Part shown: positions 32,795 to 51,462 of the stretch, one piece after another
How the letters are laid out: every line of letters starts with the position of its first letter
Numbering within the stretch: position 1 is the stretch's first letter
The notes under the pieces: generated by a model
Seen by the model: the letters and a program-made list of their open reading frames with translations, nothing else
Database searches by the model: none
What the model was told of the DNA's origin: nothing
Made by a program: the position numbers and the translations under genes
Assembly (NCBI GenBank): GCA_033648345.1
Contig: GCA_033648345.1_4121.1
Reading direction: 5' to 3' (one strand)
Source: a phage
DNA length: 64,000 nucleotides

Positions 32795-32823
32795 TGGGAC
32801 AAAGACGTTTTTGGTGCTATAAT
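32795..32823 (+). promoter_or_regulatory. Early/middle-type promoter upstream of the gp55-like gene
   Basis: TGGGAC, 17-nt spacer ending TGC, TATAAT (32818-32823); member of a recurring family. Confidence 0.45.
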
Positions 32824-36900: not shown

Positions 36901-36932
36901 AAAAGGAAAGGGAGCCTTAGCTCCCTTTTTTT
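36901..36932. terminator. Bidirectional intrinsic terminator
   Basis: Hairpin GGGAGC-CTTA-GCTCCC (36910-36925) with T7 run; the stop codon of the minus-strand gene lies in the loop. Confidence 0.65.
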
Positions 36933-37408
36933 ATATCTACCATATTTAATTTACCTTCCTTGATAAGCTTTCTGGCTTGCTTAACACGAGCAGCATTGTT
37001 TGCACCAGGGATAACACCTAACTCTTCCAGTATTGCATTCTGTTGTCCTGCTGGAAGCCTTTTAAACTTATTCGTATCGATTGTTAGTGCAGTGTGATGT
37101 ATAACTTGCTCATCTTCAGGAATGCTGTTATTACGCTCCAGATAATCCGCAAGATTTCGTAGTACCTCGTATAAGGGTTTATCGGTTAAGTGCTTCATAT
37201 AGCGATTAAAGCTGTTCTGTACTTTACCTTCCCATGCGTTCACTTCGTTCTGGAGAACTTCACGACAGTGTTGATTCTCGAAGTGATAGTGATCAAGTAC
37301 TGGCTTAGTTATTGGTTCCTTAATTATAGGATCAATTCCTTTTTGCTTCTTTAGTAATTCATTTCGATAGTTTGCAGCTTCTTTACTATCTTTTAATCTT
37401 TTCTTCAT
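36917..37408 (-). CDS. Endonuclease VII-like (HNH-type) protein, T4 gp49-like
   Basis: LDHYHFEN...NEVNAWEGK resembles the Endo VII LDHDHE...N..EG core; the zinc-binding cysteine pairs seem absent; GGGGA RBS. Confidence 0.45.
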   Translation of the reverse strand: MKKRLKDSKEAANYRNELLKKQKGIDPIIKEPITKPVLDHYHFENQHCREVLQNEVNAWEGKVQNSFNRYMKHLTDKPLYEVLRNLADYLERNNSIPEDEQVIHHTALTIDTNKFKRLPAGQQNAILEELGVIPGANNAARVKQARKLIKEGKLNMVDIKKGS

Positions 37409-37501
37409 AAATCCCCACTAAACTAATTCTTATCAAAATATTTATGCGTTACTTCAATGTTCAAGAATTATGTACTTTTTATAAATTTTTTATCATAATA
37501 G

Positions 37502-37530
37502 TGAGACACTTTTGAATTTGGTGCTATAAT
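37502..37530 (+). promoter_or_regulatory. Promoter of the early family, in an ORF-free region
   Basis: TGAGAC, 17-nt spacer ending TGC, TATAAT (37525-37530). Confidence 0.4.
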
Positions 37531-37992
37531 GTTAATTGTAGTGATGACAATCCTGTTGAATGCAGAAATGCATATAAATTAGAACCTGATCCTATCGAAA
37601 ATGTAGATGGCAGATGAGCAGTTCAACAGTGCGATGAGCAGAAGAAACCCGTTAGATGTGGGCATAGTTTGAACCCCTCACGGCGACACGGCTCAATAAA
37701 GAACTCCGATAAGCATACAGAGAGTTCCTCGATAGATGTATAAGGATCGCACCTTACCAGATTTGCTAAGGGAGTTTATTAAGTGATTTAATAAACAGCC
37801 TGAAGTTTGATTGTATAGACTTTCAGGTGAGTGTCAGGATGATTAAGACTGACGACCGTTGCACATGACTGCGATAGAGAGAAACAGAGCAACCCGCTTT
37901 CGTTCTTAATGAATTTTAAGAAATTCGCAATACAATAAATGCTGAAACCATCAGCGTCAAGAATTAAGAGACTTAATTGTCTCTTTTTTATT
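37531..37992 (+). ncRNA. Candidate ~460-nt non-coding transcript, function unknown
   Basis: Bounded by a promoter and a plus-strand intrinsic terminator; only very short ORFs without RBS; direct repeat GATGAGCAG at 37613 and 37633. Confidence 0.3.
37967..37992 (+). terminator. Intrinsic terminator (plus strand)
   Basis: Hairpin AGAGAC-TTAATT-GTCTCT followed by T5. Confidence 0.45.
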
Positions 37993-38199
37993 GTCTTCAT
38001 TCCCCTGCGGGGGGATGAAAATGTCTTCAACAAATCCCGTCAAGTATTAAATCTTTTAAAGTTCTTTATAATTAATTATAAGAAATGAATATGAGTTACG
38101 TAGTAACGAATATTCTTCAGCTAACGAATGAAATGAGTTAGATGAGTTCACTATAAAATAATTAATTCCTTTCATAATTCAATTCAATCAATTCTGTAG

Positions 38200-38233
38200 T
38201 TTAAAACCAAAAAAACCAGCAACAATGTGCTGG
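38200..38233 (-). terminator. Intrinsic terminator (minus strand)
   Basis: Minus-strand hairpin CCAGC-N8-GCUGG followed by U7. Confidence 0.5.
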
Positions 38234-38244
38234 CTCCTTGTGAG

Positions 38245-38454
38245 TTAGTGCTTCTCGTTTTGTTTTTTAATTTTCTTATTAAAAGACTTAACTAATAAGT
38301 CTCTATCAATTAGTGGCATATTAAGTAGTGTTCCGTAATCAACACTTTCCATATAAACAGAACACTCCATTAATGCAGTTTTAATATCTGACTTATTCAA
38401 CTCAAATTCCTTAAGTACTTCTTGTATTTCTTCAGGAGATGAGTGGAGAAGCAT
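38245..38454 (-). CDS. Hypothetical small protein (69 aa)
   Basis: ORF with TAATG stop/start overlap to the upstream gene. Confidence 0.4.
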   Translation of the reverse strand: MLLHSSPEEIQEVLKEFELNKSDIKTALMECSVYMESVDYGTLLNMPLIDRDLLVKSFNKKIKKQNEKH

Positions 38455-39290
38455 TATGCGAAAAAATGACTTGGGTCATATTTCAGTCCATTAATTTCCC
38501 ATTGATGATTACAGTCACTGCATTCAACTTCCATAGTATGGGAAACACCAATTTCAAGTACTTCATCCATTTTTTCACGAATTATTTTAAGTGTTCCTTT
38601 GGACTGCTGACCTAGCCATTCAGAAATGAATTCATTTTCAGTTACTTCATCACCTTCAGGTGTAATTACCTTAGCAATAACTCCTGCGATCATATCAAAG
38701 TTGAGTTGTGCCATACTTTCAAATACTTCACCAAACACTTTAACTTTTTCTTCCTGCTCCATTTCGGCAGTTTCAAGGAATTTAGTTTTTTGTTGTTCTG
38801 TAAACATTCTTTCTGCGAAGTTAGAATATTCCTTCCAAGTAAGTGGTCTAAACTCTAAACTTAGTCCATTATCCAATTGTACAGTAGGAACTTCACTGAA
38901 AGTTTGTGCTGTTTCTAGTAGATATGATAAGCTACGCTCAAAACGACCTTCTTTGTTACATTCAGGGCATGTCACATTAATATCATATGATTCTTCTTTA
39001 GAAGCTACTTTAATAGCGATAAGTAGTTGCTCTACGTCATTTACATAAAGTTCATCTGCATCAAGTACGTTAGGTACGCAGTTTTCAATAACACGAGCAA
39101 TTGCATCACCATTTAGAAGCATATCTGGTGTATTGAGTGTCATTTCATCACGTGCACTACGAGCACAAATGCCACATTTGATACCTTTAGAGCCAAGAAC
39201 TCCTTCTTTATAAGGAATCACGCCATTTGTGACCAATTTTGTACCAAGTTCTTCAATTTTAGTATACTTAGCTAGTGGGTTCATTGCCAT
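38454..39290 (-). CDS. Hypothetical protein with three CxxC pairs (putative zinc-ribbon protein)
   Basis: CGIC, CPEC and CSDC pairs; ATG at 39290 with GGAG RBS preferred over the track start 39359. Confidence 0.5.
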   Translation of the reverse strand: MAMNPLAKYTKIEELGTKLVTNGVIPYKEGVLGSKGIKCGICARSARDEMTLNTPDMLLNGDAIARVIENCVPNVLDADELYVNDVEQLLIAIKVASKEESYDINVTCPECNKEGRFERSLSYLLETAQTFSEVPTVQLDNGLSLEFRPLTWKEYSNFAERMFTEQQKTKFLETAEMEQEEKVKVFGEVFESMAQLNFDMIAGVIAKVITPEGDEVTENEFISEWLGQQSKGTLKIIREKMDEVLEIGVSHTMEVECSDCNHQWEINGLKYDPSHFFA

Positions 39291-39435
39291 TTTATTAAAT
39301 CTCCATGTAATAAATGTCTTTGTAGTATTTATTACCAAAAAATGGGACAAATTGGACAAATGTTATAGATGGGTCTTTTTTATTCGTTATAGATTCATAA
39401 ATATTTCTATAATACATCTATTAAAAGGGAATGTT

Positions 39436-51433: not shown

Positions 51434-51462
51434 TGAGACAACTTTTAAAGTAGTGATACAAT
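51434..51462 (+). promoter_or_regulatory. Promoter of the early family
   Basis: TGAGAC, 17-nt spacer ending TGA, TACAAT; upstream context AAAATATTGAGACAA mirrors 55375-55390. Confidence 0.4.

Follow-up and report, generated by a model that had tools for sequence, protein, structure and literature searches.

What is encoded by a gap of more than 800 nucleotides (nt) in a phage genome that is otherwise tightly packed with genes? This question is raised by the interval 37409-38244 of a 64,000-nt stretch of phage DNA (NCBI GenBank assembly GCA_033648345.1, contig GCA_033648345.1_4121.1), referred to here as the window. An earlier note, made from the sequence alone, had proposed that this interval holds a non-coding RNA (ncRNA) gene read from the plus strand. 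We followed up this proposal by homology searches in phage and bacterial genomes, comparative structure prediction and comparison with known RNA families. Judged from conservation and covariation, the window almost certainly carries, at positions 37501-38146 of the plus strand, a genuine functional gene for a structured RNA of an undescribed family. Instead of forming a single island, it belongs to a family with several copies per phage genome and with members in chromosomal islands of bacteria.

The source of the window is an Asteriusvirus-type jumbo phage. In blastn searches the interval was 99.5-99.9% identical to eight Escherichia coli phage records, among them EC.P1, BF17 and Ecwhy_1, and 92-93% identical to phages 121Q, PBECO4 and G17. 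The region was found in 71-72 phage records altogether, all of which are jumbo genomes of 310-386 kb or two fragment records of one such genome. They comprise phages of Escherichia, Klebsiella, Salmonella, Erwinia, Yersinia, Serratia, Cronobacter, Pectobacterium and 'Xanthomonas', which are grouped with RaK2 in the literature, and the core of the element is 68-76% identical between genera (blastn). An nhmmer profile built without any Asteriusvirus sequence gave one match in the window, at 37521-38044 on the plus strand (E = 8.5e-112). The covariance model R1, also built without Asteriusvirus sequences, gave 37794-37934 as its sole match in the window (107.8 bits, E = 5.6e-20).

The homologues were clustered at 93% identity, and the resulting 54 representatives were aligned using MAFFT L-INS-i. 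A first RNAalifold prediction on 26 sequences comprised 81 pairs, 50 of them with compensatory changes. The 54-sequence alignment yielded 92 predicted pairs in 19 helices, with 94.7% of the cells paired, against 35-46% when the partners were slid by 1-3 columns. Changes on both sides were seen for 60 of the 92 pairs (32-40 in the slid controls), and the covariation score was 0.449, compared to about 0.07 in the controls; none of 500 shuffles reached the observed values. An all-against-all scan of the alignment columns recovered the helices as well as two pseudoknots, PK1 and PK2. For PK1, all seven pairs had changed on both sides, pairing reached 99.5% against 23-41% after sliding, and the covariation score was 0.727. 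The window sequence itself pairs in helices 1-19 and in both pseudoknots. Since G.U pairs are frequent, the structure is specific to the plus strand, and the 610-nt RNA of the window folds better than 20 out of 20 shuffles (z = -3.69). With compensatory covariation present in orthologues and paralogues, both the covariance-model and the alignment comparisons favour the phage ncRNA that had been proposed.

Could the interval instead encode protein, or nothing at all? The open reading frames (ORFs) within it are all short, measuring 81 amino acids (aa; TTG start, minus strand), 49, 39, 28 and 28 aa, and the earlier claim that none of them is a credible coding sequence withstood the comparison. 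That one or several small proteins are encoded here, with conservation at the protein level, is very improbable. Some GenBank records do place one to four 'hypothetical protein' coding sequences over the region, and the 81-aa frame is present in the window, but the calls are absent or mutually inconsistent among records, differing in strand and position. Column entropy is equal over the three codon phases (0.779, 0.789 and 0.750), without any 3-nt periodicity, and the longest ORFs (median 68 aa, in sequences of about 709 nt) do not keep their position, leaving no conserved frame. Insertions and deletions occur throughout the alignments, and the substitutions in helices are compensatory, which coding does not predict. 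It is even harder to believe that the interval is a non-functional spacer or the remnant of a degraded gene, its signals being products of chance in AT-rich DNA. Promoter-like hexamers are indeed not enriched here (5 found versus 3.5 expected from shuffles), but the identity of the core across genera, the members in bacterial chromosomes, E values down to 1e-112 and covariation far above the controls all speak against it.

The RNA did not fall into a known class. Rfam 15 (4227 families), searched at gathering scores with the whole window, gave no match, and searches at E values up to 10 with the window copy and two divergent members returned only scattered chance matches of 12-35 bits, far below threshold. 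The families covered include GOLLD, ROOL, OLE, HEARO, raiA, 6S, RNase P, group I and group II introns, riboswitches and self-cleaving ribozymes. ARAGORN found no tRNA or tmRNA gene in the window. RNase P RNA was considered on account of a likeness seen by eye between ACAGAGCAACCCGC and ACAGAGAGCAAACCGC of M1 RNA; the local alignment scored 19, whereas shuffles averaged 17.9 and reached up to 28. On reading of the sequence the candidate P4 strands lack complementarity, there is no Rfam match, and this candidate was rejected. A group I intron was likewise discarded: the element has its own promoter directly upstream, lies between complete genes and matches no intron family in Rfam. The view that the element is neither a tRNA nor a group I intron nor a member of another known class is thus upheld by the empty Rfam and ARAGORN searches. 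A description of the RNA was not found in the RNA databases or papers searched, and the papers on phages CBB, PA5oct and ICP1 and a 2026 review of jumbo phages make no mention of it. By Rfam 15 and the literature searched, the predicted RNA is an undescribed class of large structured RNA.

Each phage record contains 4-5 matching places. No paralogue lies within the 64-kb window, as judged by blastn of the interval against it, and the other copies are located elsewhere in the genome. In the full, unannotated genome of the relative TH47, a scan with the family profile found exactly four copies, at about 49.4, 146.0, 262.0 (corresponding to the window copy) and 345.5 kb. They are spaced by 97, 116, 84 and about 56 kb and all lie on the dominant strand, which has about 85% of the genes. 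Of the four copies in 121Q, three were located, at 326.6, 192.8 and 90.3 kb. Paralogues are only about 70% identical to each other, and for each of them other genera have orthologues at corresponding positions. In Munch, EJP2, Hallingskeid, CBB and GAP32 the window copy has a syntenic counterpart, flanked likewise by the endonuclease VII and baseplate-hub genes. One paralogue directly follows the phage sigma-factor gene both in 121Q (90289-90777; Asteriusvirus) and in RaK2 (Alcyoneusvirus). The RaK2 paralogue is annotated as the hypothetical protein ORF245, which is probably a false gene call.

The earlier note had described the transcript as antisense to the flanking genes. This holds for the window copy, but the three other copies in this type of phage lie among co-oriented genes. 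A co-oriented ORF begins within about 170 nt downstream of the RNA in 32 of 47 representatives, its Shine-Dalgarno sequence often lying 10-25 nt past the last hairpin, and there is none in the remaining 15. Co-oriented downstream genes are lacking for the bacterial island copies and for the orthologues of the window copy (copy A) in every genus examined. In Munch, an additional ORF of 318 aa (CPT_Munch_274), which the other genera do not have, stands between endonuclease VII and the RNA promoter. In Eneladusvirus-type phages such as Serratia phage BF, one paralogue is situated directly upstream of an ADP-ribosylglycohydrolase gene, and in Yersinia phage fHe-Yen9-04 another precedes an ORF in which the DPPY motif of DNA methyltransferases was read by eye. 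ADP-ribosylglycohydrolases and DNA methyltransferases are accessory genes of a kind often linked to anti-defence.

Members were also found outside phages. A degenerate pattern of the invariant core identified 8 bacterial contigs among 185,579 species genomes, and all of them are full-length members by nhmmer, with E values between 1e-70 and 1e-80. They come from Serratia fonticola (a complete chromosome), Serratia sp., Silvania, Enterobacter chinensis, Buttiauxella, two Enterobacteriaceae and a metagenome-assembled genome (MAG) labelled 'Clostridium'. The 2.8-kb contig of the latter (DPOH01000171.1, 'Clostridium sp.') carries a copy that clusters at ≥93% identity with copies of Enterobacteriaceae and was probably mis-binned. 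The bacterial copies are single, lie in small integrative islands of Enterobacterales and are preceded by an integrase of the tyrosine or large serine type. The RNA is usually convergent with a gene for a cI-like S24 repressor, beyond which a cro-like regulator, a membrane protein and an LprI-like protein are encoded. A promoter of the phage type, TGAAACA-N-TGTGCTATACT, is retained. Two of 5426 complete E. coli genomes carry the RNA, in an island beside ffs, and the ORF downstream of it is without a jumbo-phage homologue. Among 72,556 plasmids there was no member of the family, and scans of metagenomes and IMG/VR added more jumbo-phage contigs.

Several features of individual islands deserve mention. 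A module conserved in three contigs includes a 286-aa membrane/coiled-coil protein without a family match, and no phage structural genes are in view; the RNA-bearing island is perhaps not a prophage but a satellite or defence island. In Serratia fonticola, the island encodes a large serine recombinase as well as two ParB-like proteins, and a tandem pair of rof genes adjoins its RNA-bearing end, which suggests integration into or beside rof with duplication of the target. Besides the RNA, the ffs island of E. coli LR-29-1 carries genes for a small resolvase and for DUF4326, DUF488 and dual-OB (DuOB) proteins; IS3 interrupts its integrase gene.

The architecture of the RNA and its setting in the window are given in Table 1.

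Table 1. Features of the structured-RNA locus and its surroundings (window coordinates)
Feature	Position	Strand	Basis or remark
Endonuclease VII gene	36917-37408	-	left flank of the interval
Promoter: -35-like GTGAGACA, spacer, extended -10 TGCTATAAT	37501-37530	+	consensus scan
5' domain, three-way junction	37553-37629	+	covariation counts, alignment
Helix 1	37553-37560 with 37622-37629	+	encloses variable hairpin 37561-37573 and conserved hairpin 37586-37596/37606-37613
Central domain	37635-37796	+	helices 5-10; column scan and pair counts
Central-domain helices	37635-37639/37691-37695, 37649-37652/37680-37683, 37701-37706/37722-37727, 37741-37744/37753-37756, 37774-37777/37793-37796	+	
3' core with two pseudoknots	37797-37936	+	column scan, pair counts, covariance model
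3'-core helix 11	37797-37809/37816-37828	+	
3'-core helix 12	37831-37836/37849-37856	+	
3'-core helix 14	37870-37874/37925-37929	+	
3'-core helix 15	37877-37881/37897-37901	+	
3'-core helix 17	37904-37906/37919-37921	+	
PK1	helix-11 loop 37810-37816 (AUUGUAU) with 37930-37936 (AUACAAU)	+	covariation
PK2	37858-37862 (GUUGC) with 37889-37893 (GCAAC)	+	all-against-all column scan
Hairpin UGCUGA/UCAGCG with first conserved CGUCA motif	37940-37956	+	alignment reading, no separate pair count
Terminator-like hairpin AAGAGAC-loop-GUCUCUU and U-run	37966-37985, T-run to 37992	+	scan
GC hairpin CCCC-UGC-GGGG within UUCAUUCCCCUGCGGGGGGAUGAA; full span TTCATTCCCCTGCGGGGGGATGAA	37996-38019	+	nearly invariant in the family
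Helix 19, on which the GC hairpin is stacked	GAUGA 38014-38018 with 38037-38041	+	encloses CAACAAAUC and second CGUCA motif
AU-rich spacer, variable in length and sequence, from core to 3' domain	38044-38086	+	downstream alignment
3' domain	38087-38146	+	alignment reading, not separately scored
3'-domain pairs	GAAUAU 38087-38092/AUAUUC 38110-38115 around hairpin 38095-38107; final hairpin CUAAC 38121-38125/GUUAG 38137-38141	+	
Intrinsic terminator of the convergent 69-aa gene/baseplate-hub operon	38208-38239	-	scan; annotated terminator in phage G17; outside the RNA
69-aa gene and baseplate-hub gene	38245-39359	-	right flank of the interval

In the 5' domain, changes on both sides affect 7 of 8, 5 of 5 and 7 of 8 pairs of helices 1, 2 and 3, respectively. 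CUGA and GAUGAG flank the conserved hairpin, whose loop is GAAAAUGUA. On reading of the alignment, the CUGA and GAUG strands are juxtaposed, and their G.A oppositions are replaced by A-U, C-G or G.U in some members; these flanks may form tandem G-A pairs in a kink-turn-like arrangement. A long-range helix between GAUG (from 37613) and a distal CGUC, present in the first RNAalifold prediction, was rejected: GUUGAG variants are uncompensated, GAUGAG covaries instead with the CUGA that lies upstream, and the partner of the distal CGUC is the GAUGA beside the GC hairpin. The 9-bp direct repeat that had been pointed out in this part of the interval is real, GATGAGCAG occurring at 37613-37621 and 37633-37641. 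It is not a feature of the family, as the second copy reads GAAGTGCAG or similar in most homologues, and we therefore regard it as a lineage-specific by-product of two helices.

In the central domain, all six pairs of helix 7 show double changes, and the invariant single-stranded blocks include CGGCAAUnCGGC, GAUAGAnAUAUAAGG and UAAGGGAG. A variable insertion site follows AAGGGAG. In some members, though not in the window copy, a modular hairpin with the conserved loop GUACAAUAUAG(A/U)UCCGUC is inserted at either of two sites, after AAGGGAG or inside helix 17 (the 54-sequence alignment has these insertions in columns about 415-530 and about 675-700). This hairpin may serve as a binding site or as a peripheral element that can be swapped. 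Pairing reaches 98.6% in helix 18 and 91.9% in helix 19, with variation that is mostly one-sided. The hairpin at 37940-37956 is formed by GACGA/UCGUC in other members, and in one member a change of CGUC to CGAC is matched by a change of GACGA to UCGAU.

The early-type promoter of the earlier note was recovered at 37501-37530: the scan found GTGAGA/GAGACA at 37501/37503, a spacer of 16-18 nt and TATAAT preceded by TG. Its position is the same in homologues of other genera, 10-40 nt upstream of the first helix, and nearly all members keep this promoter-proximal arrangement; a few, such as copy D of TH47, have no recognisable -10 box at the aligned position. From this promoter we infer a transcription start near 37537. 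The class, G[AG][AG]AC-N-TGnTATAAT, has 23 sites in TH47, all on the dominant gene strand, and three in the window. The two others in the window, of the form G[AG][AG]AC, 12-17 nt, TGnTA[TC]A[AC]T, are at 32796-32823 and 51435-51462 on the plus strand. The class appears to match the 'divergent RpoD-like' promoters with a TGAAACG -35 box described for phage CBB, where they are placed upstream of DNA-synthesis genes (PMC5259590). A conserved antisense promoter with TTGACG, the complement of CGUCAA, as its -35 box was also considered and rejected, as the would-be -10 box overlaps the covarying PK1 strand and is not conserved in the alignment. The genes for gp46/gp47-like nucleases, upstream of the interval, are on the plus strand.

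Where does the RNA end? The earlier note placed an intrinsic terminator after some 460 nt. Terminator-like sites are more frequent in the interval than expected (4 versus 0.4), the hairpin and T-run are indeed present at 37966-37992, about 455 nt from the predicted start, and the stem shows compensatory changes. Among the 54 representatives, the hairpin occurs with a U-run in 26 and without one in 5, and is absent from 23. Read from the alignment, the 'terminator' is thus an optional peripheral element of the RNA. The GC-rich hairpin, by contrast, stood up fully as a landmark. It is unique in the window, its pattern had no match in 100 shuffles, and together with helix 19 and the motif CAACAAAUCnCGUCA it is kept in every member, including those that lack the terminator-like hairpin.

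Conservation at the RNA level runs about 150 nt past the terminator-like hairpin, to about 38146. The plan of the 3' domain is common to phage and bacterial copies: GAAUUGA, a stem with the loop ACGAAGUGA, then CGAAAAUUC and a final hairpin. In its general form GAAUU/AAUUC encloses a hairpin, and pairing is kept between stems of wholly different sequence. Because structure and conservation extend beyond the 'terminator' in this way, the functional RNA is likely about 610 nt long, rather than the 460 nt proposed, and a terminated form of about 455 nt is possibly made too.

What such an RNA does is less certain than its existence. As an explanation of the whole element we favour, tentatively and with slightly more doubt than confidence, a self-contained gene for a large structured ncRNA that acts in trans. 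Taken by itself, the claim that the RNA acts in trans and not in cis at its own locus is one we hold with somewhat greater reserve. The architecture, with conserved loops, two pseudoknots and three domains, is that of ribozymes, ribonucleoprotein (RNP) cores and ornate RNAs, and this is why action in trans is preferred; the copy-A orthologues and island copies, without a co-oriented downstream gene, point to a function independent of any particular gene. Host sigma-70 RNA polymerase would transcribe the RNA early in infection, and the internal hairpin and U-run would be a leaky stop or merely structural, allowing the longer RNA with the GC hairpin and the 3' domain to be made. The folded RNA would itself be the product: a compact particle, whether a single RNA, an oligomer or a complex with protein, that acts while the host is taken over or in the conflict between phage and host. 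Several gene copies would supply dosage, and their divergence of about 30% outside the core might be maintained because long identical direct repeats would be deleted by recombination-driven replication. In a more specific version, which we put forward with more hesitation still, the RNA would be a double-pseudoknotted ornate class with a specific biochemical activity (a ribozyme, an RNA-only assembly or an RNP core) central to infection, and islands would have captured it with its phage-type promoter to parasitise phages or to defend against them.

Several points weigh against an RNA acting in trans. A trans-acting RNA does not obviously need 4-5 copies at conserved, roughly even positions on a single strand, which would suit a cis element, and the 32 representatives followed by a co-oriented ORF are physically 5' leaders. 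No dedicated partner protein was identified, the neighbouring genes differing from copy to copy. The transcription start and the 3' end are both positions predicted from sequence, and a transcriptome study or expression data for members of these genera were not found in the literature.

Two readings in cis were weighed against action in trans, and we consider both unlikely. The RNA could be a 5' leader serving as a transcription or expression module, one per long transcription unit, that acts by antitermination, by gating read-through of a terminator or by stabilising mRNA. The model for this is the put RNA of phage HK022, which is promoter-proximal and structured, is present in several copies per genome, is often followed by a terminator and acts where it is made. 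The element always lies immediately downstream of the promoter according to the case made for a leader, save for the few members without a recognisable -10 box, and the hairpin with a U-run comes right after the core in 26 of 54. The downstream genes vary (ADP-ribosylglycohydrolase, DNA methyltransferase, unknowns), as would befit a portable module placed before the co-oriented ORFs and their Shine-Dalgarno sequences, and the need for a cis element at each site of action would explain why paralogues are retained. Yet the copy-A orthologues, which match best across genera and include that of the window, face a convergent operon and a bidirectional terminator, the island copies converge on a cI-like gene, and a third of the representatives have no co-oriented downstream gene. 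Such a gene is in any case expected by default where about 85% of the genes share one strand. Moreover, 23 of 54 representatives have no terminator to overcome and 28 of 54 lack the combination of hairpin and U-run, of the 23 promoters that TH47 has in this class, at least 19 work without the RNA, and put is about one tenth as large as the element.

Alternatively, the element could be a replication origin in cis, at which a structured transcript forms a persistent RNA-DNA hybrid and primes the leading strand, the 4-5 copies being the origins of a 350-kb genome; an infecting jumbo phage could then also replicate the one-copy chromosomal islands. ColE1 RNA II, of about 555 nt, is a promoter-driven primer whose action depends on its structure, and oriF and oriG of phage T4 are origins consisting of a promoter and an unwinding element, several of which are distributed around the genome. 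The likeness to these systems lies in a promoter-driven transcript of about 0.5 kb with a G-run/C-run near its 3' end: the distance from the promoter to the U-run/G-run is about 455-480 nt, near the length of RNA II, and an AU-rich spacer that varies in length comes after the invariant C4/G6 hairpin. The spacing of the four TH47 copies on the main gene strand, the constant position of each paralogue across genera and the island copies without a dependent gene would fit origins as well. Among the proteins encoded by the phage are RNase H, a primase and helicases of the UvsW-like and Dda-like kinds, and the promoter class is the one found upstream of DNA-synthesis genes in CBB. The RNA is far more elaborate than known origin transcripts, however, since 19 covarying helices, two pseudoknots and invariant loops exceed their needs, and its structure continues downstream of the putative unwinding spacer. 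GC skew follows gene direction without a shift at the four loci, gene-strand switches give no origin signal, no antisense copy-control RNA is evident, and plasmids, as noted above, carry no member.

Action in trans, our preferred reading, places the RNA beside other long ncRNAs of phages. GOLLD and ROOL, as described in PMC7567579 (citing Harris & Breaker 2018) and PMC12286853, resemble it in being RNAs of roughly 0.5-0.8 kb with many covarying helices and pseudoknots, encoded as stand-alone units of phages or prophages and without a known function. They differ in that the present RNA has no Rfam match even at E values up to 10, belongs to Enterobacterales and their jumbo phages rather than to Firmicutes and rumen or lake metagenomes, and occurs in 4-5 diverged copies per genome, with no tRNA genes in the window.

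Together with GOLLD and ROOL (PMC12286853), phages ICP1, with an RNA of about 800 nt (PMC7567579), and PA5oct, with ncRNA001-004 (PMC7318152), provide precedents for abundant long ncRNAs from ORF-less gaps, strong transcription having been seen by RNA-seq in the two latter cases. The authors of the PA5oct study describe that phage as related to the present group (PMC7318152). Here too the gap is ORF-less, about 0.6-1 kb long and set in a dense lytic phage genome, but for the ICP1 and PA5oct ncRNAs there is no report of a conserved structure or of a multi-copy family. PA5oct ncRNA002 and ncRNA004 were rejected as homologues, giving no match with nhmmer or with covariance model R1, and there was no Vibrio phage in the blastn results with the interval. 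The RNA-seq-defined ncRNA004 (619 nt) lies on the plus strand between two minus-strand genes and ends in a C-run/G-run hairpin, UUUCCUUCCCAAACGGGGAGGAAA; its homology to the present RNA is not detectable.

Large, highly structured RNAs of bacteria and phages are rare, only a handful being known, such as OLE, GOLLD, ROOL, raiA and HEARO, and each earlier class has opened work in structural biology, RNA-guided enzymes or RNA-only assemblies. The present family is distinguished by 60 covarying pairs and two pseudoknots and by its presence, in several copies, in all the matching records of a whole clade of phages with genomes of 310-386 kb. It flags false 'hypothetical protein' calls in several GenBank records, and the system should be tractable in E. 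coli K-12, the record of phage Sharanji listing E. coli K-12 MG1655 as host. Nothing was found in the literature searched on the start of replication or the organisation of transcription in these giant genomes, and an RNA-primed origin or an antitermination device, if either were true, would explain one or the other. The occurrence of the same RNA in islands of Enterobacterales, the order to which the hosts belong, hints at a conflict or a dependence between phage and island.

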